This document shows positions 28,846 through 49,591 of a DNA stretch of 64,000 nt, in pieces. The notes under the pieces were generated by a model. The model did not search any database. It was not told where the DNA came from and saw only the letters and a program-made list of their open reading frames with translations. The position numbers and the translations under genes were made by a program. Location: NCBI GenBank assembly GCA_963731735.1, contig CAVSWO010000002.1, positions 270,106 to 334,105 on the forward strand. The letters are read 5' to 3'. Positions within the stretch are counted from its first letter, which is position 1; each line of letters begins with the position of its first letter. This DNA comes from Candidatus Kerfeldbacteria bacterium (GTDB lineage: Bacteria > Patescibacteriota > Patescibacteriia > SBBC01 > CAIJZX01).

Positions 28846-28880
28846 AATGCTTGGAAAGAATGGGCGGGATCCCGCTCCGG

Positions 28881-29442: not shown

Positions 29443-29635
29443 CCCAGAAGCAGTGAAACAATCGGCCGGGGCGCATGAATGCTTATGAAAGCGCCCGTCT
29501 CGTCGCGTCTGACGCGACTCGACCCAACTGAGCTACATCCCCGATAACTGGCCTACTCTACCAAAAATGCGGCCGAAAGACAATGGATGCATTCGTCCGT
29601 GAATGATGGTGCGGACGAGGGGACTGTCGACTGCG

Positions 29636-29917: not shown

Positions 29918-29972
29918 CTAGAGATAGCCTAGCAGTTTACATGCCGGAGTCAAGCTTTGCTTGACAAAGGCA

Positions 29973-30060
29973 TGGTGCGGACGAGAGGACTCGAACCTCC
30001 AACCCCTTGCGGGGACTAGCCCCTCAAGCTAGCGCGTATACCAGATTCCGCCACGTCCGC
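29973..30060 (-). tRNA. tRNA-Leu (anticodon GAG), long variable arm
   Basis: 88 nt. Anticodon arm CTAGC-TTGAGGG-GCTAG, variable arm TCCCCGCAAGGGGT and CCA. Confidence 0.8.
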
Positions 30061-32550: not shown

Positions 32551-35520
32551 ATGCCTATGTTTATCAAAGCACGAACGGCCTGGCGCCGAAAATCTCTCCG
32601 TCAGCGCACCTGGCGAGCGTTGAATATTCTGGCCATGGCCGCCCTGGTCTTACACTACGGCGCCTTTGTTGCTTTGGCTCCGCAATCTGCGCAAGCCGCG
32701 AGCGGCAGTATCTGGACTACTACAAGTTCCTGCGGGTCGCCGCAAAACGTCAACCAATACAACGTCGGTGAGACGGTTTACATTCATGGAGATGGCTTTC
32801 CTCTGGGAGATTATGATTGGGCCATCACCGGTTTGCCAGGCCAGGCCTCAACTGATCCGAATATTGACGTTGCCTCATCCATCTTGGCGGGTTCAAAATT
32901 TCATGTTGATGCTTCCGGACAGTTTTGTTTTGATGCTTACGAAATTCAAGTTGGCGATTCCGGCGAGTATCAAGTAAAATTCGAAAATGTTAAAGGTGAC
33001 AATCTTCATATAAAGGGTGATTCAAATGACCCCCAGGGCGGCGAAGACCCTCTCTACAATCTGCATGGATACAAGTGGAATGACCTGAACGGGAATGGCC
33101 AGCGAGATTGCCAAATCTTCGACCAGGCCGCGTCAGTAGTGAATGATTCCTGTGAACCGTTGCTCGGCGGCTGGACGATCCAACTCTGGCAGAATGAACA
33201 AAAGGTCGATGAAATGCAAACCTGCTCACTGGCTGATACCCAGGATGAGAAAAACGCTTGCTTTGGTCATGAAGTCGGCTGGTACTGGTTCATGAATTTA
33301 CCGGCCGGCGACTATACGATTTGTGAAGTCCCGCAGGCCGGTTGGACGCAGACCTTCCCGGTCGATCCGAACTGTCATCAGGTATCGCTCCCGAATGATT
33401 TACCGCAAACGGAAAATGCGGTCTTGGCGCCGGAATACAACTTCGGCAACCACCAAGACCAGTGCCGCCCCGGCGCCTCCTGGGCTGAAACCGTCGTGGA
33501 TGCAAGCCAGGGTACGCTGAAGAACGGTAATCCAATCACCGACAGTGCCCGGACTGACCCGAACGCGGCGCTCGGGGCCGCCGATTTTCCGGCAGCGGGC
33601 AGCTTCTTCAGTCTCGGTCAGAATGGCTGGATCACACTGGGCTTCAATCACCCCGTGCTTGATGCGCAAGGCGATGATTTGTCTTTCCACGAAGCGACGA
33701 ACGGGCGCAATGCGTACCCGAATGCGTACCCGCTTGAATCAGCGCTCGTGCAGGTAAGTCAGGACCTGTCAGAATGGAAAGATGTCGGCACGGTAACCAG
33801 CGAACCCGGCGGTGACGGCGTCATGACGCTCGACTTCAGCGGCACCGGGTACCAGTGGATCAAATATGTGCGCCTGTCTGATACCACCAATTACGCCCTC
33901 CATCAGTCGACGGCGGACGGCTACGATCTCGACGCAGTCGATGCCACCTATGAAATGTGCGCCAGTGGTTCAGTTGAGGGCTACAAGTGGCATGATCGGA
34001 ACGGCAACGGGGTTTTGGATAACGGCGAGGAACCGATGGCTGACGTCCGCATTCAAACCCTCCATGGGTTATTCGATGTGACTGATGCCAATGGCTACTA
34101 TCGGATTGACGCGATCCCAGTCGGCACTGAATCCATCATCGAATTTACCCCGGATGGCTGGTTCAACACTAATCATAATAACGTGGCTTTCGACGTCCCG
34201 ATTACGGCCAATCAAACGACTCGCGTCGACTTCGGCAACTACCAAAAATCCTCAATCAGCGGCATGAAGTTCAACGACCTGAATGGAAACAGTCAGAATG
34301 ACGAAGAACCGGGACTGGAAAACTGGACGATCACGCTCTGGAAGTGGAATGACTATCTCGGCCAGTACGCCGAAGAAGCCCAAACCACCACTGATCAAAA
34401 CGGGCAATACACGTTTAGTGATTTAGTGCCGGGTAAGTACCAGGTTTCCGAGGAACAACAAGCTGGCTGGACACAAACCTTTCCGGTTGGCAGCGGTCTG
34501 TACGATGATATTCAGCCGCTGTCTGGCGAGCAGCTGACCGGCTATGACTTTGGCAACTATCAACGGCCACAGATTGTGACCGAAGGTGCGCCGGATCTGA
34601 ACATCACCAAAACCAATGATGCCGAGACCTTCGTGAATCCCGGCGATACCGTTGGCTACACCGTGGCTGTAACAAATACCGGCCTGGCGACCGCCTACGC
34701 GGTCAGTTTAACGGACACCCTGCCGGATGGTTTCAGTTTCGTGAGCGGGTCAGCAAACATCACACCGGATTCAACCGTCGGGCAAACCACTAGCTGGAGC
34801 CTGGGCGACATCGATCCCAACCAAACCGTCACCGTCACTTATAACGCGACCGTGGACGATAACGCAGCCGCCGGAACCTATACCAATACGGCTACGGCCA
34901 GCACCAGTGTTGAACCCCAGGTGCTTGAGGAGTCTGCCCGAGGGTTTGGTGAATTACGCGCCGCCACCGTCGGACCGGTGGCTACGCCCGGCACCCAAAC
35001 CGTCAGCGTTACGGCCAGCTCGGACGTGTCGGTCCATGTCCCGCGAGTCTTGGGAGAACAGGCCAACCCGGAACTCACGCTCACCAAAGTTGTTGACCCA
35101 AGCGTCACCAACCCGGGTAAAACCGTGACCTATAGCGTGGTCGTTGAAAACATCGGACAAGCCGATGCGGTCAATGTCGTTATCATTGACACCCTACCGG
35201 GTGGGCTGACCTATGCCGATACCGGCGACCAGAGTCGGACCTGGACCTACGATGTGCTCGGCGCCGGTGAGTCAAAAATTTTGACCTTCCCCGTTAAAGT
35301 CAGTTCCTCGATCGCGGCCGGCGATTACGTCAACACGGCCAAGCTCACCGCCGACAACAACGATCCGCTAACTGCCAGCGCCAAATTGACCGTCAAAGTT
35401 CCGCAGGTACTCGGCCTGGCTGACACGGGCGTCGGACCACGCGACTACCTAATTTTCAGCTTCGGTCTGCTGAGCCTCATGTCGTGCTTCGTCCTGCTGC
35501 GACGGCAGACTCGCGCGTAA
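32551..35520 (+). CDS. cell-wall-anchored surface protein with SdrD-B/CnaB-like and DUF11 repeats and an LAXTG (sortase E type) sorting signal
   Basis: Signal peptide ending AQAAS. Repeats GYKWNDLNGNGQRD, GYKWHDRNGNGVLDNGEEP and GMKFNDLNGNSQNDEEP. DUF11-like LTDTLPDGFSFVSGS and VIIDTLPGGLTY. C-terminal LADTG followed by a hydrophobic stretch and an RRQTRA tail. Confidence 0.75.
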   Translation: MPMFIKARTAWRRKSLRQRTWRALNILAMAALVLHYGAFVALAPQSAQAASGSIWTTTSSCGSPQNVNQYNVGETVYIHGDGFPLGDYDWAITGLPGQASTDPNIDVASSILAGSKFHVDASGQFCFDAYEIQVGDSGEYQVKFENVKGDNLHIKGDSNDPQGGEDPLYNLHGYKWNDLNGNGQRDCQIFDQAASVVNDSCEPLLGGWTIQLWQNEQKVDEMQTCSLADTQDEKNACFGHEVGWYWFMNLPAGDYTICEVPQAGWTQTFPVDPNCHQVSLPNDLPQTENAVLAPEYNFGNHQDQCRPGASWAETVVDASQGTLKNGNPITDSARTDPNAALGAADFPAAGSFFSLGQNGWITLGFNHPVLDAQGDDLSFHEATNGRNAYPNAYPLESALVQVSQDLSEWKDVGTVTSEPGGDGVMTLDFSGTGYQWIKYVRLSDTTNYALHQSTADGYDLDAVDATYEMCASGSVEGYKWHDRNGNGVLDNGEEPMADVRIQTLHGLFDVTDANGYYRIDAIPVGTESIIEFTPDGWFNTNHNNVAFDVPITANQTTRVDFGNYQKSSISGMKFNDLNGNSQNDEEPGLENWTITLWKWNDYLGQYAEEAQTTTDQNGQYTFSDLVPGKYQVSEEQQAGWTQTFPVGSGLYDDIQPLSGEQLTGYDFGNYQRPQIVTEGAPDLNITKTNDAETFVNPGDTVGYTVAVTNTGLATAYAVSLTDTLPDGFSFVSGSANITPDSTVGQTTSWSLGDIDPNQTVTVTYNATVDDNAAAGTYTNTATASTSVEPQVLEESARGFGELRAATVGPVATPGTQTVSVTASSDVSVHVPRVLGEQANPELTLTKVVDPSVTNPGKTVTYSVVVENIGQADAVNVVIIDTLPGGLTYADTGDQSRTWTYDVLGAGESKILTFPVKVSSSIAAGDYVNTAKLTADNNDPLTASAKLTVKVPQVLGLADTGVGPRDYLIFSFGLLSLMSCFVLLRRQTRA

Positions 35521-35596: not shown

Positions 35597-35672
35597 TGGT
35601 GGGCGACAGAGGAGTCGAACCTCTGACCTTCACAATGTCAATGTGACGCTCTAACCAACTGAGCTAGCCGCC
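35597..35672 (-). tRNA. tRNA-Val (anticodon GAC)
   Basis: Anticodon loop TTGACAT, T-loop TTCGACT and CCA. Confidence 0.85.
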
Positions 35673-35743
35673 CACGCCGGCCCACGATACCACAGCTTTG
35701 TCCGCAGCTCAAGTAGGGGCGCGGCATTGCCGGTACCGGGTTA

Positions 35744-35820
35744 TGGTGGGCGGACATGGATTCGAACCATGGACCGGTCGGATATAAGCCGACTGCTCTA
35801 ACCAACTGAGCTATCCGCCC
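35744..35820 (-). tRNA. tRNA-Ile with unusual anticodon TAT (UAU)
   Basis: Canonical cloverleaf GGGCGGA...TCCGCCCACCA. Anticodon arm GTCGG-CTTATAT-CCGAC gives UAU at positions 34-36. T-loop TTCGAAT. Confidence 0.7.
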
Positions 35821-36919: not shown

Positions 36920-38770
36920 CTAAGCCTTGGCTGTCGGTTTCGGGCCCAGCAGCTCTTCGAACGCATCACGTTCGATGGTTTCCTTGCTCAGTAGCTCTTC
37001 AGACAGTTTTTCGAGCTCCGCTTTGTGCTCGTGCAGAGTCTTTTCGGCGATTTGGCGGGCGTGGGTCAATAAACGATCCATTTCCTGATCAATTGACTGA
37101 GCAATTTTTTCCGAGTAATCGCGCTGTTCATGAATCTCCCGGCCCAAGAATACCATTTCCTCTCGTTCACCAAACGTCCGCGGTCCAAGTTTACTCATGC
37201 CATAGCGGGTTACGATTTGGCGGGCCAAACGCGTGGCGTTTTGCAGGTCGCTGGAGGCGCCGGTTGAAACTTCATGGAAAATCATGTCTTCAGCTACTTG
37301 TCCGGCCAGCATAACCGCCATGTCGCTCATGAATTCACTCAGCCGCCGGTAGCTGCGATCCTGGGTTGGGGTTTTCAGGGTAAATCCTCCGGCCCGACCG
37401 CGGGCGATAATCGAAACTTTTTGGACCGGATCTGTATCGGGGAGGAAATGCGCCACGATCGCATGGCCGCCTTCGTGGTAAGCGGTAATCCGTTTTTCCT
37501 CATCCGACATCACCTTGCTCTTGCGTTCCGGTCCCAGCAGAACTTTTTCCATGGCATTCACGCAATCTACGAACGTGACCGCGGTCCGACGATCGCGAGC
37601 GGTAATGATCGCCGCCTCATTCAACATATTTTCCAGGTCCGCCCCGGAGAACCCGGCTGTCCGTTCGGCCAGCTGCCGAATATTGACGCTCTGCTCGAGG
37701 GGTTTCTTAACGGCGTGCACTTTCAGGATTGCCTCACGTTCATTGATGTCCGGCAGGTCGATCGTGACGCGGCGGTCAAACCGTCCCGGCCGCAACAGCG
37801 CTGGATCAAGCGTATCGGGGCGGTTGGTGGCGGCAATCACAATCACATGCGTGTCCGTGTCAAAGCCGTCCATTTCAACCAATATCTGGTTAAGGGTCTG
37901 TTCGCGTTCATCGTGGCCCCCGCCAAGTCCGGCACCGCGTTGACGACCGACCGCGTCGATTTCATCGATAAAGACAATGCTGGGCGCGGTTTTCTTGGCA
38001 CGACGGAAGAGGTCGCGCACGCGCGAAGCTCCGACGCCGACGAACATTTCCACGAATTCCGAACCAGAAATATTATAAAAAGGTACATCCGCTTCTCCGG
38101 CCACCGCTTTAGCCAGTAATGTTTTTCCGGTTCCAGGCGGCCCAACCAGTAAAGCGCCCTTGGGAATTCGCGCGCCTAAATCAGTGAAACGTTTCGGGGC
38201 CTTCAAAAATTCCACAATTTCTTGCAGCTCTTCTTTCGCCTCATGCGCGCCAGCCACGTTTTTAAAGGTAACGCGTTTTTTCTTGCTCGGCGTATCCGCT
38301 TCGCGTTGTGAGACTTGTCCAAAACTCATAGCCCGGCTGTTCTGTCCCTGAACTTGGCGGAAGGTCAGCCAAATAAATCCGCCGATAATTAAAATCGGCA
38401 GTAAAATCGGCAGCACCGTATTGAACAGAAACACCGAGCCTGAATTGTCTTTGACCGATCCAGTGACCGCGATCAGCGCTTCCGGCGAAACACCGAGATT
38501 GGTGGCGGCGGTTGTCCAATCAACCGTCGGTTCTTTGCGAGACTCTTGCTTGGTTCCATCTTTGAGCGTCACATTCAATTGGTCGCCGTTAATATCAACG
38601 ACTTTGACTTTCTCGTCCTGAATTTCCTGAACGACTTGTCCGAGCGTCACCACGTCCGGTTTTGATCCGGACAAACTGACCGTGCTCAAAACAAAGCTTA
38701 AGACCACCAGGGAGACCAGGAAGATAATAATATTCTTAAACAGGGGGTTCGTGCGCGGTGATCGAGGCAT
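36920..38770 (-). CDS. ftsH: ATP-dependent zinc metalloprotease FtsH
   Basis: Walker [12 protein letters not shown] and the Zn-binding HEGGHA. The start is at MPRSPRT, directly downstream of the promoter. Confidence 0.9.
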
Positions 38771-38783
38771 AGAGAACAGGCGG

Positions 38784-38812
38784 AGTATAGCGATGAATGG
38801 CCCTTTTGACAA
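38784..38812 (-). promoter_or_regulatory. sigma70-like promoter TTGTCA-17-TATACT for ftsH
   Basis: On the minus strand. The -10 lies 13 nt upstream of the ATG at 38770. Confidence 0.5.
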
Positions 38813-38866
38813 GCCCCGGCGGACCAGTCTACACTATCGGCAACCCATTTCGAAAGGAGGATCGAA

Positions 38867-39553
38867 TTGGACTTTACGCACCTCCCAATTCTGAACTCAG
38901 CCGAGGAAATATCTTCGGTCCTGGGGCTGTGCCTGGACGCGGTGCTCCGAGCCAGAGTTGATCTCCAATTTGAGGATCGGCAGGATACCGCCGAAAATTT
39001 CGCCAATCTGGTTTTGGCGGATGCCCTGGCCACCGGTTTCCATTCGGCCGGTTCGCACCAGAGTGTGGCGCTCGATCCGTCGCGTGAGCGGGATGCTTTG
39101 CTGCATTTCGAACCTCCGCTTGCCCGTTTTCGAACGGGTATCCGGATTGGCACGCGCTGTCTCTTCGTACTGAGTCAGCAGGATCGGCCACCGGCTGGAA
39201 CCTCGGGCCAGTTGTTGGCGCTGGGTAGCAGCGCCTTTCGAGCCGCGGCGGCGAATGTGCCAACCGCGGAAGAAACCTTGGTGCAAACCTACAACCGGCT
39301 CTGCCGATTGTTTCCTGCGTACGTCAGGGTGACAGCGCACGCTGGAATGAATCTCGGATTTCACGACCTGCCGAAACGACTCCTCCAGCCCACTGAACCG
39401 GTGGGCACTATCGACGACTTTCTGGAGGCACTGGCAGCCTATACGCGATCGCTGGACCATCCAGACTGGACCAGACTGCAACAGATAGTTGTCCAGCGCC
39501 GATCCATCGATCCGCACTTCCATTTCGAACTCCCGCCGGAACCTACCCACTAG
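38867..39553 (+). CDS. hypothetical protein (228 aa, TTG start)
   Basis: AAGGAGG RBS 7 nt upstream of the TTG. It was preferred over the antisense ORF 38897-39550. Confidence 0.4.
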   Translation: MDFTHLPILNSAEEISSVLGLCLDAVLRARVDLQFEDRQDTAENFANLVLADALATGFHSAGSHQSVALDPSRERDALLHFEPPLARFRTGIRIGTRCLFVLSQQDRPPAGTSGQLLALGSSAFRAAAANVPTAEETLVQTYNRLCRLFPAYVRVTAHAGMNLGFHDLPKRLLQPTEPVGTIDDFLEALAAYTRSLDHPDWTRLQQIVVQRRSIDPHFHFELPPEPTH

Positions 39554-39615
39554 GCCGGCGGTTTTTCTTGCGTCAACCGTTTTCGAGGGGGGATTTGTGC
39601 GTAAAGGTGTGGATT

Positions 39616-39637
39616 GGTATAATCCCCCCTGGGGGGA
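39616..39637 (+). promoter_or_regulatory. extended -10 (TGGTATAAT) overlapping the perfect C6/G6 palindrome TCCCCCCTGGGGGGA; further C-tract repeats downstream to 39680
   Basis: The perfect 15-bp inverted repeat lies immediately after the -10. It is consistent with a CsoR-family operator. More C4-5 tracts sit in the 80-nt leader. Confidence 0.55.
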
Positions 39638-39702
39638 GTAGGATATCCCCAGGAGTTATCCCCGAATACCCCGACCCCCATTTGTGCATAGCTCAAAAAC
39701 GT

Positions 39703-39978
39703 ATGAAAAACCTCCAAGATTCAAGGAAATCGGCCGGTCATCGGTTGGCCATCGTTGAGGGGCATCTGAAGAAAGTCCGGCGGATGGTGGATGAAGGCGG
39801 ATACTGTATCGAAATTATTCACCAATCCCGAGCCATCCAGCAAGCGCTCAAGAAATTTGACGAACATATTCTTCATCAGCATTTGCGAACCTGCGTCCGC
39901 CGTGATATGCAGGATAGCCGAGGCACAAGCTCAGAAAAAACAATTCAAGAATTAATGGAAATATTTGAACGCCTATGA
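39703..39978 (+). CDS. csoR: CsoR-type Cu(I)-sensing transcriptional repressor (C-H-C ligand set)
   Basis: YCIEIIHQ (Cys) plus HQHLRTCV (His and Cys) gives the CsoR x-C-H-C fingerprint. The start is at MKNLQD. Confidence 0.75.
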   Translation: MKNLQDSRKSAGHRLAIVEGHLKKVRRMVDEGGYCIEIIHQSRAIQQALKKFDEHILHQHLRTCVRRDMQDSRGTSSEKTIQELMEIFERL

Positions 39979-40970
39979 CGATGCGCATTGCCGGAGTCGA
40001 ACTCGAGGCCTGGGAGCAGGAAAAATTGAAGGACGTGTTTAGCGGTGGCATCTACTCCGATCGCCACTTGGCGGAAGCCGGGGACCTGGGTGATCCGGAA
40101 ATTCTGCTGACTTTCATTAATAGTCCGATTGATGCCAAGGCGTTACAGCATTTTCCTTCACTCAAACATATCGCCACCCTATCGACCGGTTATGATCATA
40201 TTGATTTGGCAGCCTGTCGAGAGCGCGGCATCGTCGTCAGCAACGTCCCGAGCTATGGTGAGAACACGGTGGCCGAGCAGGCTTTCGCCTTACTCTTGGC
40301 GCTCACTCGGAAAATTGTTCCGAGTGTCGAGCGGACGCGAGCCGGCAGCTTTCATTTGGATGAATTGCGCGGCACGGATTTGGCCGGCAAAACATTTGGC
40401 GTCATCGGTAGCGGTCGGATCGGGCAGCATGTTATGAAAATTGCCAAGGGGTTCGGGATGCGGGTCTTGGCCTTTGACATTCATCCCCGACCGGAGTTGG
40501 CTGCGCAACTCGATTTCACCTATCTAGAACTTGATGAACTTTTGCGGCAAAGTCAGGTGGTTAGTCTGCACGCACCGGCCACACCGGAAACCCACCACCT
40601 GATCGACGAGCGCCGCCTACGCTTGATGCCGCCGGAGGCCTACCTGATCAACACCGCCCGCGGAACATTAATCGACACCCAGGCCTTGTTACAAGTTTTG
40701 AATGACGGGCACCTGGCCGGAGTCGGCTTGGATGTCTTGGAAGAAGAGTGCTCGATTCGAGAGGAACGGGAATTATTGTCACCGGTCTTTCAAGCCAAGT
40801 GTGATCTCAAAACACTCCTGGCTGATCATGTCTTGCTGGGTCATCCGCGGGTACTGATCACGCCGCACAATGCCTTTAACACGGTTGAGGCGCTCCAGCG
40901 AATTCTCGAGACAACCATCAAAAATGTCCAAGCCTTCCAAGCCGGCCAACCGCAGAACGTGGTAACCTAG
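39975..40970 (+). CDS. D-isomer-specific 2-hydroxyacid dehydrogenase family protein
   Basis: NAD-binding GVIGSGRIGQHV, a catalytic Arg-Glu-His pattern and about 330 aa. Confidence 0.8.
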   Translation: MTMRIAGVELEAWEQEKLKDVFSGGIYSDRHLAEAGDLGDPEILLTFINSPIDAKALQHFPSLKHIATLSTGYDHIDLAACRERGIVVSNVPSYGENTVAEQAFALLLALTRKIVPSVERTRAGSFHLDELRGTDLAGKTFGVIGSGRIGQHVMKIAKGFGMRVLAFDIHPRPELAAQLDFTYLELDELLRQSQVVSLHAPATPETHHLIDERRLRLMPPEAYLINTARGTLIDTQALLQVLNDGHLAGVGLDVLEEECSIREERELLSPVFQAKCDLKTLLADHVLLGHPRVLITPHNAFNTVEALQRILETTIKNVQAFQAGQPQNVVT

Positions 40971-41013
40971 GCATGGAGGTGGATACGCAAACTATGCTAG
41001 GCTACACTCCAGT

Positions 41014-41223
41014 ATGACAACGCCCGCGCCCCAAAACGAAGCTCCGCTGGAATCCGTGACCGATCCGGTCTGCGGACGAGTACTCGAAGCCGCTCACGCC
41101 GCCCAGGTTTATGAGTTGCGCGATCAGCGATATTATTTTGACTCGGCTGAGTGCCTGCAAAAATTCATTGAAGATCCCGAAAAATATATCGAGGTTCCCG
41201 ATCAGGAACCCGATGAAGATTAA
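41014..41223 (+). CDS. YHS-domain (TRASH-like metal-binding) protein
   Basis: DPVCGRVLE...YYFDSAECLQKF matches the YHS domain pattern. Confidence 0.65.
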   Translation: MTTPAPQNEAPLESVTDPVCGRVLEAAHAAQVYELRDQRYYFDSAECLQKFIEDPEKYIEVPDQEPDED

Positions 41224-41237
41224 TTGATACTCGCCCT

Positions 41238-41987
41238 ATGGAAGAACAACCAAACCTGACCAAGCGTGAGCGCAAAGAATTGCGTCGCCAAGAAAAACTG
41301 GCCCAACGCCAGACCGGTGCCCGACAGCAGACGATGAAGCGCGTCTGGACGTGGGGCGGTACGATTCTCGGGCTCGGCTTGCTAATTTGGGGCATGGTCT
41401 ATCTGGCCCAAAGCAATTCGTCAGGTTCAACCACCGCCACCGGAAAACTCGACCCCGTCACCGCCAGTGATCACCTGCGTGATAACGCCGATGCGCCGGT
41501 CGTGATGGTTGAATATGGAGATTATCAGTGTCCGGCTTGCGGGACCTATGAAAAGGTTGTTGAGCAGCTGTCGAGTGATTTTGGCGATCAGTTAGCGGTC
41601 GTTTTCCGTAACTATCCGCTCAAAACAATTCACGCGAATGCCGAGGCGGCCGCTCGAGCGGCCGAGGCGGCTGATAAACAGGGTGCCTTCTGGGCTTACC
41701 ATGACCTGCTCTATGACCGACAAAATGATTGGTCGCAACTCCCGAACACCAAAAGCACGTTCGAGGGCTATGCCCAGGAACTCGGCCTCGATGTTGAACA
41801 GTTCAAATCGGATCTCGATAGCCAGGCGGTCAAGGATAAAATCGCGTCAGATGTTGCCAGCGGCGATCGGGTCAGTCTCTCGGGGACGCCGACATTCTTC
41901 CTGAATGGCGAGGCGATCAAGAACCCGGGTAGCCTCGAGGAATTCAGCGCCTTGATCAAGGCGAAGCTCCCGGCCACGAATTCATGA
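41238..41987 (+). CDS. DsbA-like thiol:disulfide oxidoreductase, membrane-anchored
   Basis: N-terminal TM and a thioredoxin fold with the CPAC active site (YGDYQCPACG). Confidence 0.8.
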   Translation: MEEQPNLTKRERKELRRQEKLAQRQTGARQQTMKRVWTWGGTILGLGLLIWGMVYLAQSNSSGSTTATGKLDPVTASDHLRDNADAPVVMVEYGDYQCPACGTYEKVVEQLSSDFGDQLAVVFRNYPLKTIHANAEAAARAAEAADKQGAFWAYHDLLYDRQNDWSQLPNTKSTFEGYAQELGLDVEQFKSDLDSQAVKDKIASDVASGDRVSLSGTPTFFLNGEAIKNPGSLEEFSALIKAKLPATNS

Positions 41988-42421
41988 GCCGGCTCACCCG
42001 TCTGGCATTACCGTTGCTAGTGCTGGGGGTGATTGGTTTGGCTGACGCAACTTACCTGACGGTCCAACATTACCGGCAGGCGATGGTGCCGTGCTTTGTC
42101 GGCACGGCTTGCGAAACGGTTACCACCAGTTCATATGCCACGCTTGGACCGGTGCCGCTGGCGTTGCTGGGTGCCATCTATTACCTGGTCATTACCCTCG
42201 GCACCGTCGCGACGCTCGAGGCGCGACGCTGGGATTGGTTGCACATGCTTTGGGGACTGACGATCGGGGGTTTTCTGTTTAGCCTCTACTTGCTCTACCT
42301 CCAATCCTTTGTGCTGCACGCCTATTGCATTTACTGCCTCCTTTCGGCCGGCACTTCAATTGGGTTGTTTGGGTACAGCCTTTGGGCGTATACTCACTAT
42401 CGTAAAACATTAGAAATATAA
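41984..42421 (+). CDS. vitamin K epoxide reductase (VKOR) family protein
   Basis: Four-TM protein with loop Cys pairs (C...C) and the active-site CIYC. It is translationally coupled to the DsbA-like gene. Confidence 0.75.
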   Translation: MSRLTRLALPLLVLGVIGLADATYLTVQHYRQAMVPCFVGTACETVTTSSYATLGPVPLALLGAIYYLVITLGTVATLEARRWDWLHMLWGLTIGGFLFSLYLLYLQSFVLHAYCIYCLLSAGTSIGLFGYSLWAYTHYRKTLEI

Positions 42422-42425
42422 ACCT

Positions 42426-42947
42426 ATGGACATCACTTCCAGTACACCCAACGAATCAATGCGCGCCCCGCACCATTGGCCGATTTTTGGCCTGGTTCGG
42501 CTCGGACTCGGCTGGACATTCTTATGGGCCTTCCTCGATAAAACTTGGGGGTTGGGCTTCGCGACTGAAGCCGGAAAGGCTTGGCTGGACGGCGCTTCAC
42601 CCACCACCGGATTTTTGAAGTTCGCAACCAGCGGGCCGTTGTCCGGATTTTACCAGGCGTTGGCCGGTCAGACGTGGGTGGATTGGCTGTATATGCTGGG
42701 CCTCCTGTTGATTGGCTTGGCCTTACTGTTCGGCATGGGACTACGAATCGCCGGATGGTCGGCCGCCCTGATGATGCTGCTATTTTGGAGCGCCGCCTTA
42801 CCGCCGGAAAATAATCCATTCCTGGACGAACATATCATCTACATATTCCTGCTGATCGGCATTGCCGTCCGACCTGCCACTTTTGCCTGGGCCAGTTGGC
42901 ATCCGGGTTGGATGAAAGTCGTCGGCCGACATCGCTGGCTCGAATAG
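42426..42947 (+). CDS. DoxX-family membrane protein
   Basis: DoxX-like four-TM pattern (RLGLGWTFLWAFLDK...). Confidence 0.6.
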   Translation: MDITSSTPNESMRAPHHWPIFGLVRLGLGWTFLWAFLDKTWGLGFATEAGKAWLDGASPTTGFLKFATSGPLSGFYQALAGQTWVDWLYMLGLLLIGLALLFGMGLRIAGWSAALMMLLFWSAALPPENNPFLDEHIIYIFLLIGIAVRPATFAWASWHPGWMKVVGRHRWLE

Positions 42948-42954
42948 TCGAGTC

Positions 42955-43572
42955 ATGTCCGAGACGGTCACGGTCGACCACCATGCATCCCGTCGGCTGC
43001 TGTTGAGTTTTGGGGCGGCACTCGCGGGAGTTGGTATCCACTACGGTGCGTTGATCATGGCCGACCGGTTCGTTGACCATTATCCCCGAGTGCCGGATGT
43101 GCTGATGGACCGGTTACCACGCGTTGATTTCGGCTGGTGGGGTGAAGCCTATTTCTTTCTGCTGATCATCGCGCTGGCAGCCATCTACTTTGGTAAGCAG
43201 CGGCGCGGGCTGAATCGCGCTTTTCTGACCCTGGCAATTTTTTACACGCTCCGGGCTGGATTCTTACTACTGCTCCCGATTGGTGCCCCGGCGGGTGCCG
43301 CCGCGCTGACTGATCGGCTCAATCTTTGGGGATTCGCCGAGCACGCCTACTTTCCCGGCGGCCATGTCGGTATTCTTTTTTTGCTGGCCTTGCAAATTAC
43401 CGATCGAACCTGGAGAAGAGTGCTATTGATCGGCGCGCTGGTGTTTGGGCTTGGGACTATTCTGGCCAAAACGCATTACACCGGGGACTTGCTCGGCGGA
43501 TGGTTATTGGCTTATGCGATCGTGGCTTGGTCGCGGCTCCATCCAGCACAGCTCGAATCTGACGTCGCTTGA
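42955..43572 (+). CDS. PAP2-superfamily membrane phosphatase-like protein
   Basis: PAP2 motifs FPGGHVG (PSGH-like) and KTHYTGD (H...D) within a six-TM frame. Confidence 0.55.
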   Translation: MSETVTVDHHASRRLLLSFGAALAGVGIHYGALIMADRFVDHYPRVPDVLMDRLPRVDFGWWGEAYFFLLIIALAAIYFGKQRRGLNRAFLTLAIFYTLRAGFLLLLPIGAPAGAAALTDRLNLWGFAEHAYFPGGHVGILFLLALQITDRTWRRVLLIGALVFGLGTILAKTHYTGDLLGGWLLAYAIVAWSRLHPAQLESDVA

Positions 43573-43639
43573 GAACGGCCTGCCGGGTTCTCTCGGTGGG
43601 GCTTTTTTAAAAAGCCCCAGCAGAAATGGCTGGGGCGCG

Positions 43640-44239
43640 TTAGGAGAGTTGTTGGAGCAGTCGGTAAACCTGATGTTCATATCGAGCACCGGCCAGCGCT
43701 CGATGTGGCCGCGGTTCCGGCTCCAATCCCAGATACTGGCCGATTTTGGAGAGCGACAAGGTCTGGATTTGACCGCCGAGAAAATTCGCTTTCAGGCGAT
43801 CGCTGGCTACCGACATCAGGCAGTGCCAGTGATAGTCTCCCCGCCAGTCCAGTTCGAACCGGTCGTAGTAGTGATTCAGCCAGTAGAATTCGAACGATAC
43901 GTTGTAGGCCCAGGGTGTACACCCGGTCGTAAAGGCGTTGAATGCCTGCAGCGCGGGGGCGACCTCCATGGCATCGCGCCAAACCGGCCAGGCAAAACCG
44001 TTGTACCGATTGAATGAAAGTTCTTGCTCGGATTTGCCGGCCGGGTTTTCGAGCTTGAGTTTCAATTCGAGCTCGTCCAAGCGGGTGAGCGATCGAGGGT
44101 CTACCTTGATCGCTCCAATCTCACAAATTTCTCCGCCGGTTGTCCAGCTGACACCGGTCGTTTCGACGTCGATGAAGACCATCGGCAATTCCCAAAAACT
44201 GCTGGTACCGATCGATCGTCGGCTACTCATCAGGCCCAT
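43640..44239 (-). CDS. DnaQ-like 3'-5' exonuclease domain protein
   Basis: Exo I motif FIDVETTG and a C-terminal HRALAGARYE (Exo III-like). Confidence 0.65.
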   Translation of the reverse strand: MGLMSSRRSIGTSSFWELPMVFIDVETTGVSWTTGGEICEIGAIKVDPRSLTRLDELELKLKLENPAGKSEQELSFNRYNGFAWPVWRDAMEVAPALQAFNAFTTGCTPWAYNVSFEFYWLNHYYDRFELDWRGDYHWHCLMSVASDRLKANFLGGQIQTLSLSKIGQYLGLEPEPRPHRALAGARYEHQVYRLLQQLS

Positions 44240-44319
44240 GGGAACGCTCCCGGGTTGGTGGAAGGTGCAAACAAAAGTGCCCGCACCTTACGGCCAGGCT
44301 CAACGGATGTCAAGCAGTA

Positions 44320-45543
44320 TTATTCGTACCGCAGCGCCTCGATCGGATCTTTGCGGGCCGCCCGAAAAGCCGGTAGTAGACCGAACAAGAGACCGACCCC
44401 GAGTGAAAAGCTGGTGGCGGTGAGAATTGAATTCCAATTGACAATAATTTCCAGGTCGGCTTTTTGTTTGACGATAATGCTGGCGATCAGCACAATCCCC
44501 ACCCCGATCGCGCCGCCAAGCAGGGAGATGATGGCCGACTCGGTCAGAAATTGGAACAAGATGCTGGCCCGGGTGGCACCCAGGGCTTTGCGTAAACCAA
44601 TTTCTTTGGTGCGTTCAGACACCGCCACCAACATGATATTCATGATCCCGATCCCGCCAACGATCAAAGAGATCGAGGCCAGCCCGACGATGGCGGTTGT
44701 GATCAAGCCTAAAATATTGTCGACGACTTTGAGTAAGTCTTCCTGCGTAAAGACCGTGAAATCTTCGACGCCGTGTTGCTGCTTCAGCAAGCCGGTTACC
44801 CTGTTTACAAAATCCTTGGTATTCACGTCCGGGTCGATTTTCATCACGATCCGGAAAATTTGGGCGTTGTCGTTGCTGGCTTTACCGGTCAGGTAGGGCA
44901 GCAGCGCCATCGAATTAAATTGGTCGCTACCGAAGGGACTGTTCGATTGTGCGTCTTCGACCACGCCAATCACCGAAAATTCATTTTTTCCGATGGTCAT
45001 GGTTTTACCGATGACCGCCGCGGCCGCCTGCCCGGGGAATAATTGGGCAGCTACTTTTTTGCCGAGTACAATGACGTTGTCATGGTTCGTGTTTTCCTCA
45101 GCCGTAAACACACGGCCGGCCGCGATTTTGACGGTCGTCAGGATAGAAAAATAATCAGGTTCCACTCCGACCAGCAACGCGCCATTGGCAATATTGTTGC
45201 CGGCGGCCGCTAACCCCGCTAAGAGCGAAACTGGCGTAATGGTTTGCACTTCCGGTTGTTGCTTGAGTAAACTGAGGTCGTCTTCCGTCAGCGTCGAGGC
45301 TCCGACCGAGGCGCTTGGGTTAAACCCGCCATTGCCGTCTTGAAGCTGCCCCGGCAACACGAAAAGCACATTAGTTCCAAGTTGTGTGACTTGATCAGAG
45401 ACGGACTTTTTAACGCCCTGGCCGAGGCCGATCAGGGCGATGATTTGCGCCACGCCAATAATCACCCCTAGCATGGTCAAAATCGATCGTGTTTTTTTCG
45501 ACCAAATCGATCGCAGGGCGTTGGTAAAGGCGTGACCAATCAT
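44320..45543 (-). CDS. ABC transporter permease (FtsX/MacB-like)
   Basis: N-terminal TM, a large periplasmic domain and a C-terminal FtsX-like four-TM region. Confidence 0.8.
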   Translation of the reverse strand: MIGHAFTNALRSIWSKKTRSILTMLGVIIGVAQIIALIGLGQGVKKSVSDQVTQLGTNVLFVLPGQLQDGNGGFNPSASVGASTLTEDDLSLLKQQPEVQTITPVSLLAGLAAAGNNIANGALLVGVEPDYFSILTTVKIAAGRVFTAEENTNHDNVIVLGKKVAAQLFPGQAAAAVIGKTMTIGKNEFSVIGVVEDAQSNSPFGSDQFNSMALLPYLTGKASNDNAQIFRIVMKIDPDVNTKDFVNRVTGLLKQQHGVEDFTVFTQEDLLKVVDNILGLITTAIVGLASISLIVGGIGIMNIMLVAVSERTKEIGLRKALGATRASILFQFLTESAIISLLGGAIGVGIVLIASIIVKQKADLEIIVNWNSILTATSFSLGVGLLFGLLPAFRAARKDPIEALRYE

Positions 45544-46223
45544 AGCAGTTTTCCGTCTTTCACATGGATGGTCCGGTGCGCCAAGCGCGCCAGCTCTTGA
45601 TTGTGGGTGACCATGACTAACGTTTTTCCCTGCTTGTTCAAATCAGTCAAAATTTGCAAAACCTCATCGCCAGACTTTGAATCAAGATTTCCGGTCGGTT
45701 CGTCAGCCAGGATGACTTTCGGGTCATTCATCAGGGCCCGAGCGATCGCCACCCGTTGACGTTCGCCGCCGGAAAGTTTCGGGACTTGGTGGTGCAGCCG
45801 GTGTTCAAGATGGACTAACTTCAGAAGTTCTTCGGCCCGCTGCTTGGCTTTGGTTTGGTGACGGAGATACGAGGCTGGGAGTGCCACGTTAGCCATCACG
45901 TCCAGATTCGGCAGCAAATTAAAATTCTGAAAAATAAATCCGATAAACTCGCTGCGTAAACGTGCCTGGGTTCGATCGGACATGTTCAACGAGACGGCTT
46001 GCCCATCGAGGGTATAAGTTCCGGTCGTCGGGCGATCAAGCAAACCAACAATATTCATCAGGGTTGATTTACCGCTTCCCGACGGACCCATAACGGCTAC
46101 AAATTCACCCGGCGCTACCGACAAACTGACATCGTCCAAGGCTCGGACGGTGGTTTCACCGAGCTGGAAAGTTTTGCTGACGTGCTGGAGATCAAGCAGA
46201 GACACAGGTTGCGAGTATAGCAA
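45540..46223 (-). CDS. ABC transporter ATP-binding protein (MacB/LolD-like)
   Basis: Walker A GPSGSGKST, signature LSGGERQRVAIARAL and Walker B ILADEPT. Confidence 0.9.
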   Translation of the reverse strand: MLYSQPVSLLDLQHVSKTFQLGETTVRALDDVSLSVAPGEFVAVMGPSGSGKSTLMNIVGLLDRPTTGTYTLDGQAVSLNMSDRTQARLRSEFIGFIFQNFNLLPNLDVMANVALPASYLRHQTKAKQRAEELLKLVHLEHRLHHQVPKLSGGERQRVAIARALMNDPKVILADEPTGNLDSKSGDEVLQILTDLNKQGKTLVMVTHNQELARLAHRTIHVKDGKLL

Positions 46224-46280
46224 AGACGGCCGCGCCCCGCCAGAGGCGGGGCGCGGCTGACCAGCAGATTCGTAAGGTCT

Positions 46281-47504
46281 TTAGGTGCTGGCTTCTTCGG
46301 TTGGCGCTTCAGCTGCAGCGGCTTCGGCTTGCGGTGCTTCATCTAAGCTGACGCCGGCTAAGGCTGGGTCGCTGACGCGTTCACCTTCGGCCGTCGATAA
46401 CCCGCGATCATCTTCCAGGGCTTTGACCGATAAGCCAAGACGGTGTTGGTCCGGTTCAATGGAGATAATTTTGAAATCGCGAACCTCATCAACCTTCAAG
46501 ACTTCGGCTGGATTCTGAATTTGTTTCTTGGACAATTCAGAAATATGGGCCAGTCCGTGAATTTCCTCATCGAGTTCCACGAAGGCGCCGAACGGATTGA
46601 GTTTCAGGACTTTGCCTTTGACGGTTTGGCCGATTTGGTATTTCTCAACCGCCGTTTTCCAGGGATCATCTTTGAGCTGTTTGAGCGACAGGGAGATCTT
46701 GGTGCCTTCGATACCGATAATTTTGGCTTTAACCGTATCGCCAACTTTGACGATATCGCGCGGATTCTCAACCCGCTGCCAGGCTAACTCAGAAATGTGA
46801 ATTAAGCCTTCCAGGTGCTCGCCAAATTCCACGAACGCGCCGAAATCAACCACCCCGGTGACTTGGCCTTCAATCGTGTCGCCAACATTGTAGCCGGCTA
46901 CGATTTGGGCGTGTTCCTTGGCCCAGGCGGCCTTTTCCGAAACAATCAGTTTGCCTTCGGCCTCGTTGACGTCAAGCACTTTGACGCGCAGCGTCTGGTT
47001 GATGAATTTTTGTAGCAGTTCTAAGATCCGTCCCTTATCACCACCCTCAACCCGAGGATAGTGTTCGGGCGTTAATTGCGAGACCGGCAAGAAGCCTTCA
47101 ATCCGGCCAACCATGACCATAATGCCGCCGCGGTTTGCGTCGGTCACCGTGACATCAATCACTTCACCCGAGTTCATTAGGCGAGTCAGCTCATCCCAGG
47201 CCTTCTGGTGTCCGGCCGAACGGAAGGAAAGTTCCATTTGACCTTGCTCATTTTCAAGTTCCAGGACGGTAGCCTGGACCCGATCACCAACTTTTAATTC
47301 AGAATATTCGCCGGATTCGTCGTAGAGTTCACGACCTCGGACAATGCCGGTAGTTAGGCCGTCAATATCAACGTGCGCTTCATTTTTTGAAACGCTTAAA
47401 ATCGTGCCTTGCACAATCTCACCGACCGCCGGTAGCTTCGGTAAAGAGGCGTCGGCTAATAGACGCTCCATTTCATTTATCGGGGTCTGCGTAGCAGTAG
47501 CCAT
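46281..47504 (-). CDS. rpsA: 30S ribosomal protein S1 (four S1 domains)
   Basis: Repeated S1 RNA-binding domains (G.V.G.V..I...G.FV.L). Confidence 0.85.
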   Translation of the reverse strand: MATATQTPINEMERLLADASLPKLPAVGEIVQGTILSVSKNEAHVDIDGLTTGIVRGRELYDESGEYSELKVGDRVQATVLELENEQGQMELSFRSAGHQKAWDELTRLMNSGEVIDVTVTDANRGGIMVMVGRIEGFLPVSQLTPEHYPRVEGGDKGRILELLQKFINQTLRVKVLDVNEAEGKLIVSEKAAWAKEHAQIVAGYNVGDTIEGQVTGVVDFGAFVEFGEHLEGLIHISELAWQRVENPRDIVKVGDTVKAKIIGIEGTKISLSLKQLKDDPWKTAVEKYQIGQTVKGKVLKLNPFGAFVELDEEIHGLAHISELSKKQIQNPAEVLKVDEVRDFKIISIEPDQHRLGLSVKALEDDRGLSTAEGERVSDPALAGVSLDEAPQAEAAAAEAPTEEAST

Positions 47505-47567
47505 ATAATCATTGTTTACCCTTCAAACCATCGAGTTCGAAAGTCCGGGCGACGCCGGGGCGCTCGG

Positions 47568-48470
47568 GTGAAAAACGGCGTTTTCTTCGTCAATCAATAC
47601 GCCGGTCACTCTAGCGGAAAACCGAGATATTTGCAAGTCCCGGCAATTGACGGTATCGGATTGCCCTGCTGTAATAGGGTTATGGGGGCATCGCGATCAA
47701 TTCCCAGTCGACGCATGAGCGTCCGGTCACCGGGCGGCAGCTTGGGGCATTCAAGCTCGCCGGAGCATCGAAGTTTTCATCTGAGCCGGCCTGAGAAGAA
47801 GGCTTTTACGCAATCGGCTTTTGAAAAATATCAGCCGCAAGAATATCAGCAGCATGCCAAGCAACATTCTCCGGCCGACGTCCAAGACGCCGATCGGGAG
47901 TTTTATTTACGGCAAGTGCAGGGCGGTCGAACGCTTGAAACCCGCGAGGACGTAGAAAAATTTGCCCGCGGTTTTCTGAAGGACGCGCACGCCGAAGGTG
48001 CGCGCTTACGCGGTGGTCTGAATACAGAACGTCGGGAGTATGAGCAGGCTAAACAACTGGCCAAAGAATACTTGAAAAAACATACCGACCAGCCCGATCC
48101 CCATAAAGTTCATCACTCAATAATGACCGCCATGCGCGACCGCCTCGGTATTCAACATGGTCCCGCCCCGGCCGCTGAATTCAAACCCGCCTGGCAAGCG
48201 CCCGAACCGCTTGGCCTTGATACATCGCCGGCGACACCCGAACCGACCGGAGGGAGTCCGGCCACCCCAGTATTTAATCCAGCCTCGCAAGCCTTTATCG
48301 GCGGACGCTTAGGTCAGGTCAGCAAACCGGCGGCCCCGGCTTCCACCGCAGTCCCGGCCAATCAACCCCCGCCGGAGCCGCCGTCACCGACCCCGGCCGC
48401 CCCCGCTCCGACGCCAAACAACGACCCGGCCATCCCCGATCCGGATGACGCGCAAGCGCTCCCAATTTAG
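47568..48470 (+). CDS. hypothetical protein with a proline-rich C-terminus (start uncertain)
   Basis: Long ORF. The C-terminus is PEPPSPTPAAPAPTP low-complexity sequence. Confidence 0.35.
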   Translation: MKNGVFFVNQYAGHSSGKPRYLQVPAIDGIGLPCCNRVMGASRSIPSRRMSVRSPGGSLGHSSSPEHRSFHLSRPEKKAFTQSAFEKYQPQEYQQHAKQHSPADVQDADREFYLRQVQGGRTLETREDVEKFARGFLKDAHAEGARLRGGLNTERREYEQAKQLAKEYLKKHTDQPDPHKVHHSIMTAMRDRLGIQHGPAPAAEFKPAWQAPEPLGLDTSPATPEPTGGSPATPVFNPASQAFIGGRLGQVSKPAAPASTAVPANQPPPEPPSPTPAAPAPTPNNDPAIPDPDDAQALPI

Positions 48471-48560
48471 GCCGTTTTTTGCCCGCCGCAGCCATTGCCA
48501 GATAGGCGGTTTTCTGCTAAACTCAGGGCATTCTCGATTGATATCGAACGCAGTCTTCGT

Positions 48561-49169
48561 ATGATTATTTCTTCACTTGGCGATGCCGGAATTCGCCTCC
48601 AAACCAAAGAAGCCGTGGTCGTGATTGACCCCCCGGCCGCCAGCACCGGTCTCAAGGTTAGTCGTTCCAGTGCCGATATCGTCGCCCAAACGCAAGTTGA
48701 GCGACGTGATCTCAGCAACGTCACTTCTCCGGGACTGGTTATCACCACGCCGGGCGAGTACGAATTGAAACAAGTGTTTATTTACGGTTTGGCGCTGGCG
48801 TCTGATCCCGGAAAAATTCATTTCCGGATTGAGGCTGAAGGGTTAAGCCTTGGACACTTGGGCGATCTAACCGGCAACTTGCAAAATGGCGAACTTGAGG
48901 CGCTTGAGGGGGTTGATATATTGTTTGTACCAATCGGCGGAAAAGATACGCTCAGCGCTGAAGCCGCGGCTAAGCTTATTAGCCAAATCGAACCGCGCGT
49001 GGTTGTTCCAATACAATATAAAATAACCGGCCTGAAGATTGCTTATGATGATGTGGCTGGATTTTTGAAGGAAATGGGTTCGAAGGATGTGCAACCGGAA
49101 GCCAAGTGGAAAATCGCGAAAAAAGATTTACCGGCCGAAGAAACCCAAGTAGTTTTATTGTCCGCATGA
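48561..49169 (+). CDS. MBL-fold metallo-hydrolase
   Basis: Beta-lactamase-fold pattern resembling UlaG/Zn-dependent hydrolases. The start was taken at MIISSLGD. Confidence 0.55.
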   Translation: MIISSLGDAGIRLQTKEAVVVIDPPAASTGLKVSRSSADIVAQTQVERRDLSNVTSPGLVITTPGEYELKQVFIYGLALASDPGKIHFRIEAEGLSLGHLGDLTGNLQNGELEALEGVDILFVPIGGKDTLSAEAAAKLISQIEPRVVVPIQYKITGLKIAYDDVAGFLKEMGSKDVQPEAKWKIAKKDLPAEETQVVLLSA

Positions 49170-49588: not shown

Positions 49589-49591
49589 CCT

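Follow-up and report, generated by a model that had tools for sequence, protein, structure and literature searches.

What does a copper-sensing repressor regulate when no copper exporter lies beside it? This question is raised by a csoR gene in a stretch of Candidatus Kerfeldbacteria DNA (Patescibacteriota; contig CAVSWO010000002.1) that we analysed over 64 kb, referred to here as the window, which is also the scope of all window searches; the source contig measures 822,872 bp, most of a genome of this type. An earlier note, made from the sequence alone, had proposed that a canonical C-H-C CsoR controls a D-2-hydroxyacid dehydrogenase (2-HADH), YHS, DsbA, VKOR, DoxX and PAP2 cluster rather than a copper exporter, and that copper stress would thereby induce an extracytoplasmic module of disulfide-bond formation and thiol repair. 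The open reading frame (ORF) map and the raw sequence show seven co-directional, tightly packed genes on the plus strand, csoR included (Table 1). Judged by its gene content, the locus is a copA/copZ-deleted variant of the clade-typical CsoR cop operon with a DsbA-VKOR-DoxX tail, and ordinary gene loss explains its headline feature.

The sensor itself is well preserved. Its best solved-structure matches (2HH7, 4M1P, 4ADZ and 3AAI) are all CsoR proteins, from M. tuberculosis, Geobacillus, Streptomyces and Thermus. Residues Y34, C35, H60, C64 and E83 align to Y35, C36, H61, C65 and E81 of M. tuberculosis CsoR and make up the full Cu(I) fingerprint. The C, H and C ligands are invariant in all 58 homologues compared, and the window protein does not deviate at any column that is at least 90% conserved among them. 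It lacks the histidine that RcnR and InrS employ at the N-terminal 'W' position, and its NCBIfam matches are weak, in the order RicR > FrmR > RcnR. The ATG start is the one used in orthologues. Altogether, the protein looks like a bona fide Cu(I)-type CsoR, apparently functional, with a predicted operator over its own promoter.

The promoter of csoR is an extended -10 element, TGgTATAAT, one of only two such sites in the window, with a -35-like TTGTGC 17 nt upstream of the -10. The -10 overlaps a 15-nt palindrome, T-CCCCCC-T-GGGGGG-A (7+1+7), which is itself contained in a predicted operator, TAATCCCC-CCTGG-GGGGAGTA, an 8-5-8 inverted repeat with one arm mismatch that spans the -10 and the likely transcription start. 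At the family level, this repeat, of the form TAATCCCC-N5-GGGGAGTA, has one match in 64 kb against 0.17 expected by chance, and each related locus has a single copy of the motif, invariably in front of csoR. Alignment A1 compares nine distinct csoR loci: the window, six Kerfeldbacteria-type relatives, L017 (comparison loci carry the prefix L) and one FCPU426 locus. The -10 is invariant across all nine as TA(T/C)AAT, and the conserved unit is TATAAT-CCCCCC-N3-GGGGATTA, an 8-5-8 repeat of the form TAATCCCC-N5-GGGGATTA. The operator of the window has the same layout as the type 2 CsoR operators defined by experiment, G-tract pseudopalindromes with the streptomycete consensus ATATACCCCTNAGGGGTATAT at which two tetramers are bound (PMC3902906). 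A motif scan found no second operator within the 64 kb, and none was found at exact-core level before the DsbD-cupredoxin/copZ genes of relatives.

Further repeats lie on either side of this core. Upstream, a G-tract half-site, AGGGGGGATT, overlaps the -35-like element and is a 10-nt perfect complement of AATCCCCCCT within the operator; GGGGGATTTGTG-like sequence over the -35 is conserved in most relatives. Downstream, the leader holds an GGATATCC box and three C-tract boxes, TTATCCCC, ATACCCC and GACCCCC, and the second of these is invariant across the nine loci as AT(A/C)CCCC (A1 columns A92, T93 and C95-98). Besides the palindrome, then, relatives conserve the GGGGGATTTGTG half-site, an GGATATCC/TATCCACA box and AT(A/C)CCCC some 35 nt downstream, and these elements may serve as auxiliary CsoR half-sites for higher-order binding. 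A riboswitch or attenuator in the leader was considered and rejected, since the leader RNA fold was not significant against shuffles (z -0.37) and an Rfam scan of the region returned no family. For the same two reasons, it is likelier that the leader C-tracts act as DNA half-sites than that they form an RNA element.

The array has the appearance of a single operon. ATGA overlaps join csoR to the 2-HADH gene and dsbA to vkor, and the remaining gaps are 43, 14, 4 and 7 nt. Between positions 38800 and 43700 of the plus strand we found only two convincing intrinsic terminators, one at each end of the array; in both cases none of 200 shuffles was as good, and both also appeared in the T-run scan. 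The upstream one straddles the stop codon of the preceding 228-aa gene, and this terminator-like hairpin would insulate the csoR promoter from that gene. The downstream one lies immediately 3' of the PAP2-like gene, back-to-back with the terminator of a convergent RNase T-like gene. Neither the fold scan nor the T-run scan found an internal terminator between csoR and the YHS, DsbA, VKOR, DoxX and PAP2 genes. With gaps of -4 to 43 nt and terminators at the ends only, a single csoR-pap2 transcription unit is supported as a prediction, and copper induction of DsbA-VKOR-DoxX by read-through from the csoR promoter (PcsoR) would be plausible. GC content is uniform across the region (0.50-0.59), so horizontal acquisition or a foreign origin is not indicated.

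Much of the earlier note's description thus held. The C-H-C sensor was borne out by Pfam, structure alignment and five fingerprint residues, the extended -10 does overlap a perfect palindrome, the further C-tract repeats are present in the leader, and the gene identities (2-HADH, YHS, DsbA with CPAC, VKOR with CIYC, and PAP2) were confirmed by Pfam or homologue families, DoxX being the probable identity of the remaining protein on the strength of its homologues. Its count needs correcting: it had seven partly overlapping genes following csoR, where six follow and seven are reached with csoR, the overlaps being real at two junctions. As to signals that might separate csoR from the genes downstream, which it had named as fatal to its proposal, no internal terminator was found, while the 43-nt gap between the 2-HADH gene and yhs does contain a plausible promoter, to which we return below.

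The origin of the array became apparent from its relatives. Among CsoR homologues, the closest share 74-81% identity with the window protein and carry the label Candidatus Kerfeldbacteria or Patescibacteria; their loci have in common an ftsH ... csoR ... macB/ftsX neighbourhood and the same promoter/operator. Six distinct relatives had enough contig to be informative (L002/3, L004/5, L006, L008/9, L014/15 and L016). All six have the order csoR - 2-HADH - copA - ... - dsbA - ... - vkor, and upstream of csoR all six have an HMA (copZ) gene as well as a gene that fuses DsbD_2 to a cupredoxin; L017/18 show the upstream part. The ATPases bear the P1B-1 Cu+ signature (CxxC, CPCx6P, YNx4P, MxxSS and DKTGT). 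The spacing between copA and dsbA is only 2-15 nt in four of the six, and the copA 3' ends of relatives showed nothing resembling a promoter. Given this tight spacing, a link between the cop operon and DsbA-VKOR that is conserved in the clade appears to be supported. Beyond these loci, 12 CsoR homologues could be paired, indirectly, with a CopA orthologue on the same contig. A scan of genome contigs with CsoR gave four distant loci (43-69% identity), and distant CsoR loci, in Woesebacteria and Anaerolineae, also have adjacent copA and DsbD-cupredoxin genes.

In the window, no such pump was detected. None of the large window ORFs encodes CopA or CopZ by Pfam, with no P-type ATPase or HMA protein among them. 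Searching the window by tblastn with the CopA, CopZ and DsbD-cupredoxin proteins of relatives returned nothing, the syntenic positions being empty, and the motifs DKTGT and GMxCxxC are absent from all six frames. Nor was a deletion scar seen: tblastn found no remnants, and nothing recognisable lies in the 43-nt gap or its short ORF. The product of the 228-aa gene upstream of csoR matches L002 3679-4380 (tblastn E 1e-15) and L017 (E 2e-17), and its homologue in relatives lies ahead of the DsbD_2/cupredoxin and copZ genes, both missing in the window. Independently assembled contigs (L001 and L019, run ERR11594398) span both junctions without gaps, covering 38036-41228 and 41290-49697 at 99.78% and 99.98% identity. 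None of the 120 highest-ranking CopA homologues, whose identity to a Kerfeldbacteria CopA is 46% or more, was traced, by an indirect route, to the source contig. Identities of FtsH, 2-HADH and CsoR place the window lineage among some four lineages at roughly equal distances; since copA is present in every one of the others, the parsimonious reading seems to be that copA and copZ were lost secondarily in the window lineage. A Cu+-ATPase under the operator is found in the six relatives and not in the window, and on its genes the window locus is a degenerate cop-operon derivative, not a functional member of the efflux operons.

These comparisons sustain part of the proposal with which we began. 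CopA and CopZ are indeed missing from the window, as shown by Pfam, tblastn and the six-frame motif search, and a Cu(I)-type CsoR, its operator, the lack of an internal terminator and the clade-wide link all remain in favour of the cluster as interpreted. What falls is the idea of a regulon built without an exporter: in all six relatives, a Cu+-ATPase lies between the 2-HADH gene and dsbA. Comparison of synteny, which the earlier note had recommended, retained the csoR/dsbA/vkor link and also brought to light copA, copZ and DsbD/cupredoxin genes.

We therefore favour, with a probability of about 0.6, a Kerfeldbacteria-like cop operon that lost its exporter and would still be read as a Cu(I)-released csoR-pap2 transcript, supplemented by a probable internal basal promoter. 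The ancestral layout would have been PcsoR/operator-csoR-D-lactate dehydrogenase (D-LDH)-like 2-HADH-copA-[yhs]-dsbA-[doxX-like]-vkor, with DsbD/cupredoxin and copZ genes upstream. In the window lineage, copA, the upstream copZ and the DsbD-cupredoxin gene would have been deleted and a PAP2-like gene added at the end, whereas the sensor, the operator and the 2-HADH, YHS and DsbA-VKOR-DoxX genes would have been kept. By analogy with characterised CsoRs, apo-CsoR tetramers would bind TAATCCCC-N5-GGGGAGTA over the -10 and the start site, keeping RNA polymerase out, and Cu(I) bound at C35', H60 and C64 would release the repressor. Transcription that starts near 39630 and ends at the terminator near 43606 would then yield a csoR-2HADH-yhs-dsbA-vkor-doxX-pap2 mRNA of about 4 kb, as the sequence supports, and VKOR would re-oxidise DsbA. 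The Dsb genes would probably also be expressed at a basal level from the internal promoter before yhs, so that copper boosts, rather than switches on, thiol oxidation. A more ambitious version holds that the CsoR regulon of the clade couples Cu(I) efflux, an oxidising DsbA-VKOR(-DoxX) pathway and D-LDH, and that, after loss of the pump, selection keeps the sensor as a copper-triggered switch for extracytoplasmic thiol oxidation together with a cytoplasmic YHS copper buffer; this we regard as rather doubtful, and a role of DoxX in 'thiol repair' is speculative.

Several observations weigh against this favoured reading. Both co-transcription and the copper response are inferred from sequence. 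The right arm of the window operator, GGGGAGTA, differs by one mismatch from the GGGGATTA found in the eight other loci. The entire ftsH...macB region is syntenic, so that conserved order alone is no proof of functional coupling. In relatives, housekeeping genes (gpsA, DHODH and PNPOx) are embedded between copA and vkor, which speaks against purely copper-dependent control of the array. A copA could be present elsewhere in the genome, as a divergent P1B ATPase (below about 46% identity) or on another contig. Finally, the candidate promoter TGGATA-N17-TACACT in the 2-HADH/yhs gap, overlapped by TGcTAGGCT, could serve the downstream genes, and MdbA-like oxidoreductases are enriched in the Candidate Phyla Radiation (CPR), where MdbA/VKOR pairs have been read as pilin-folding housekeeping (PMC6744442). 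The last two points, like the interspersed housekeeping genes, would fit a CsoR that controls only csoR, 2-HADH and perhaps yhs, with DsbA-VKOR-DoxX-PAP2 as housekeeping genes of oxidative folding (of pilins and other exported proteins) and of the membrane that depend mainly on an internal constitutive promoter and are neighbours through conserved order, a possibility that we take seriously while judging it unlikely. TACACT or TACGCT -10 hexamers also precede tRNA genes and the 228-aa gene of the window, pilin genes come after vkor in L003, L008 and L014, and DoxX-like homologues elsewhere are unlinked to DsbA or copper genes. However, the gap is free of terminators, so read-through from PcsoR is still expected, and the close copA-dsbA spacing of four relatives, with no promoter-like sequence at the copA 3' end, also counts against this alternative. 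The candidate itself agrees with the sigma-70 consensus at 8 of 12 positions, its activity is inferred only, and the yhs mRNA that it would give is predicted to be near-leaderless.

The remaining alternatives concern what CsoR does. CsoRs commonly control several operators, three for example in S. lividans (PMC3902906), and the DNA inspected is 64 kb of a much longer contig, which leaves room for an exporter kept elsewhere in the genome and controlled by CsoR in trans, from a second operator beyond the window. We consider this improbable: the 120 CopA homologues gave no trace of the source contig, whereas 12 CopAs of relatives do pair with CsoR contigs, and the single operator in 64 kb and the empty copA, copZ and cupredoxin positions point the same way. 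It is more improbable still that csoR and its operator are decaying relics with no regulatory role left. The exporter and chaperone that give such a sensor its usual purpose are gone and one operator-arm mismatch has arisen, but every residue conserved in at least 90% of the homologues is kept (C35, H60 and C64 included), promoter, 8-5-8 geometry and accessory boxes have all been preserved, and the csoR frame is intact and still coupled to 2-HADH. Least credible is a CsoR-family protein that senses something other than metal and responds, like CstR, to persulfide/reactive sulfur or, like FrmR, to an aldehyde. Such a sensor would suit the thiol and disulfide genes downstream, CsoR-family members are reported to control sulfur pathways, with TTHA1953 as an example (PMC10318464), and rhodanese, thioredoxin and thioredoxin reductase genes adjoin csoR in Woesebacteria (L011). 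Against this stand the full x-C-H-C plus Tyr/Glu Cu(I) fingerprint, best structure matches that are all copper CsoRs, the weak NCBIfam order given above, and CsoR orthologues that sit directly on copA/copZ operons.

The proteins encoded downstream of csoR were each examined in turn. The top solved-structure matches of the 2-HADH are fermentative D-LDHs (5Z20 and 3KB6); it carries both the catalytic and the NAD-binding domain (PF00389 and PF02826), and every NCBIfam equivalog scored below its own cut-off. Translational coupling of this gene to csoR recurs in almost all close relatives (L002-L018); in L008/L009 it starts 35 nt past the csoR stop. No rationale is known for a copper operon to carry a fermentative dehydrogenase gene in second place. 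The YHS protein contains DPVCG; L004 has an orthologue of it, as does L010, where it comes immediately after csoR. The protein is presumed from its sequence to be the remaining Cu-binding protein; many CopA homologues carry YHS as an N-terminal domain. The DsbA translation shows CPAC, the cis-Pro loop GTPTFF and a Lys/Arg-rich N-terminus followed by a hydrophobic anchor, and the protein would be membrane-anchored and extracytoplasmic. Its orthologues in relatives sit downstream of copA.

VKOR, a bacterial analogue of DsbB, has four transmembrane helices and no fused thioredoxin domain. Aligned with Synechococcus VKOR (4NV6), it retains the loop pair C37/C43, Ser-Ser and C114-I-Y-C117. Quinone biosynthesis genes are often lacking in CPR bacteria, which bears on its electron acceptor. 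L006 has two tandem VKOR paralogues (12234-13145), and in L016 a VKOR frame found by tblastn (8544-8933) was left uncalled, the gene caller having placed a 50-aa ORF on the opposite strand.

The DoxX-like protein scored below the Pfam cut-off, while 31 of 41 homologues match PF07681 with no competing family and are named at source DoxX or thiosulfate:quinone oxidoreductase subunit. Its AlphaFold model is helical (mean predicted local distance difference test, pLDDT, 91.7); a Foldseek search against the PDB, which holds no solved DoxX structure for comparison, gave no match. In L002, L008 and L014, the orthologous gene sits between dsbA and vkor. A general DoxX-Dsb linkage was nevertheless rejected, since DoxX-like homologues in a Parcubacterium and in Glycomyces have no DsbA/VKOR neighbours. 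In Parcubacteria (L020-L025), a close DoxX-like homologue is paired with a Ferric_reduct-like membrane protein, not with DsbA/VKOR, which hints at a more general membrane redox role of this DoxX clade.

For the last protein, PAP2, PAP2_3 and PAP2_C matches were all sub-threshold, and a sequence search against the PDB found nothing. Among 40 homologues, 32 match PAP2, 29 PAP2_C and 14 AtPDCT1_2; invariant residues include R100, PGGH137 (G136-H137; C2) and H174-YTG-D178 (C3). Because of these homologue matches and invariant motifs, the gene is placed, on sequence grounds, in the sphingomyelin-synthase (SMS)/PDCT-like branch of PAP2. No orthologue was found in the loci of relatives. The family is rare (217 cluster representatives at E <= 1e-3 among 1.84 billion), and some members are embedded in proteins of 350-675 aa.

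Table 1. Features of the csoR locus, with positions in the window.
Feature	Position	Strand	Basis or remark
Upstream 228-aa gene, function unassigned	38867-39553	+	no Pfam/NCBIfam match
Terminator-like hairpin CCGCCGG...CCGGCGG with U-run	39533-39569	+	-18.5 kcal/mol, z -2.78
G-tract element (AGGGGGGATT and -35-like)	39586-39600	+	half-site at 39586-39595
-35-like TTGTGC	39595-39600	+	
Extended -10 TGgTATAAT	39615-39623	+	
Predicted operator	39620-39640	+	8-5-8 inverted repeat
AATCCCCCCT	39621-39630		complement of half-site
15-nt palindrome	39623-39637		
Leader boxes	39641-39679	+	
Leader C-tract TTATCCCC	39656-39663		
Leader C-tract ATACCCC	39666-39672		
Leader C-tract GACCCCC	39673-39679		
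csoR, 91 aa, Cu(I)-type CsoR/RcnR repressor	39703-39978	+	PF02583, 77.7 bits (cut-off 22.8); start ATG 39703
D-isomer-specific 2-HADH, D-LDH-like	39975-40970	+	PF02826, 196 bits; PF00389, 93.6 bits
Candidate internal promoter TGGATA-N17-TACACT	40980-41008	+	pattern match, 2-HADH/yhs gap
TGcTAGGCT	40995-41003		overlaps the candidate promoter
Stand-alone YHS protein, 69 aa, cytoplasmic	41014-41223	+	PF04945, 39 bits (cut-off 30.3)
Membrane DsbA/MdbA-like, CPAC	41238-41987	+	PF13462, 91 bits; PF01323, 62.5 bits
VKOR, 145 aa, CIYC	41984-42421	+	PF07884, 93.5 bits (cut-off 27.5)
Divergent DoxX-family membrane protein, 173 aa	42426-42947	+	homologue family; own Pfam score 18.4 bits (PF07681 cut-off 23.6)
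PAP2-superfamily membrane protein, SMS/PDCT-like branch	42955-43572	+	homologue family; own Pfam score 24.3 bits (cut-off 27.2)
Intrinsic terminator, 9-bp stem and T6	43579-43608	+	-19.4 kcal/mol, z -3.70

Other loci and neighbouring features were recorded along the way. The DsbD_2/cupredoxin fusion, with the HMA gene where there is one, lies at L002 4446-5808, L004 4107-5311, L006 6699-7862, L008 5667-6882, L014 4646-5866, L016 1401-2629, L011 8823-9842 and L013 8647-9765. A small HMA (CopZ-like) gene comes after the fusion in Kerfeldbacteria, and an HMA gene is also present in the Anaerolineae locus; in the Woesebacterium, the fusion gene adjoins csoR and no separate small HMA gene was detected there. 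The Woesebacteria locus (L011, 3910-5286 and 9971-17013) reads csoR-DUF1573-unknown-rhodanese-cupredoxin-copA-thioredoxin-thioredoxin reductase, with a DsbA-DsbB pair 5 kb upstream, and is a second CPR lineage in which thiol-redox genes cluster with cop genes. In FCPU426, the CsoR homologue (L010 2394-2669) is 68% identical and has Gln in place of the second-shell Tyr; the locus has its YHS gene directly after csoR and shares the operator of the window.

Within the window, the 228-aa gene is overlapped on the opposite strand by an ORF at 38897-39550 (-), and the public gene call (L001) took the minus strand; of this pair, it is the 228-aa product of the plus strand alone that has counterparts in relatives (E 1e-15 to 2e-17). 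Eleven tRNA genes form three minus-strand clusters (4546-4877, 28360-30060 and 35600-35820), and several are preceded by TTGnnn-N17-TG-n-TAnnnT promoters, which we used to define local promoter usage. Two large putative surface proteins, one with fn3 and LysM and one SdrD_B/DUF11/SpaA-like, are encoded at 5182-7863 and 32551-35520 and are unrelated to the csoR array.

A literature search on CsoR with VKOR/DsbA, or on CsoR in Patescibacteria, returned no earlier description of the cluster or of CsoR-DsbA-VKOR control. Provided that copper derepresses the array as a single transcript, we would have here the first case found of a cytoplasmic CsoR that governs an oxidising DsbA-VKOR pathway, as well as a metal sensor outliving its exporter in a reduced genome, with a bearing on how ultra-small, host-dependent bacteria cope with copper. 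Should the switch and YHS-buffer version also be true, this would amount to copper defence without efflux in a minimal-genome bacterium; should the Dsb genes be mere neighbours, the finding shrinks to ordinary gene loss in a cop operon. The comparison defines a clade CsoR operator, TAATCCCC-N5-GGGGATTA, with accessory half-sites for uncultivated Patescibacteria, and a conserved csoR-ldhD-copA-dsbA-vkor layout, and it supplies a natural copA-deletion variant that can be exploited in metatranscriptomes.

Of the known systems, the CsoR cop operons (M. tuberculosis csoR-Rv0968-ctpV, and csoR/copZA of B. subtilis and S. lividans) are among the closest. They have in common with the window the C-H-C site with its Tyr/Glu second shell, a small repressor of the four-helix-bundle family, and autoregulation via a G/C-tract pseudopalindrome that overlies the promoter and has AT-rich dyads on its flanks; through the relatives, the likeness extends to csoR directly upstream of a CPC-type Cu+-ATPase with copZ nearby. 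The window differs in having neither ATPase nor chaperone, and the clade has arms TAATCCCC/GGGGATTA instead of TACCCC/GGGGTA. Here, moreover, a D-LDH-like gene is coupled to csoR, and DsbA, VKOR and DoxX genes are part of the array.

In the M. tuberculosis DoxX-SseA-SodA membrane oxidoreductase complex, a DoxX-family membrane protein is tied to thiol homeostasis. In contrast, the window cluster has no SseA or SodA partner, its DoxX clade is divergent, and homologues elsewhere stand beside unrelated genes. The MdbA-VKOR pair of Actinobacteria and CPR bacteria (PMC6744442) shares with our locus a membrane-anchored DsbA-like CxxC protein beside a stand-alone four-Cys VKOR, and, in the relatives, pilin genes nearby. 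That literature, however, ties the pair to pilus assembly, not to copper, and the papers searched do not describe its position immediately downstream of csoR-copA in this clade.

A copper-Dsb connection has its precedents in Proteobacteria, where the control is exerted by an envelope two-component system or Cpx and the proteins are reducing or isomerising (DsbD/E/G and ScsC). Salmonella scsABCD and the dependence of E. coli on DsbC under copper are examples. Copper-induced Dsb expression is also known from P. aeruginosa DsbRS-dsbDEG (bioRxiv 10.1101/2020.08.17.255257). In our case, the sensor would instead be a cytoplasmic CsoR and the module an oxidising DsbA-VKOR pair. The two would share the concept that copper stress raises extracytoplasmic thiol-disulfide oxidoreductases and thereby protects the cysteines of exported proteins.

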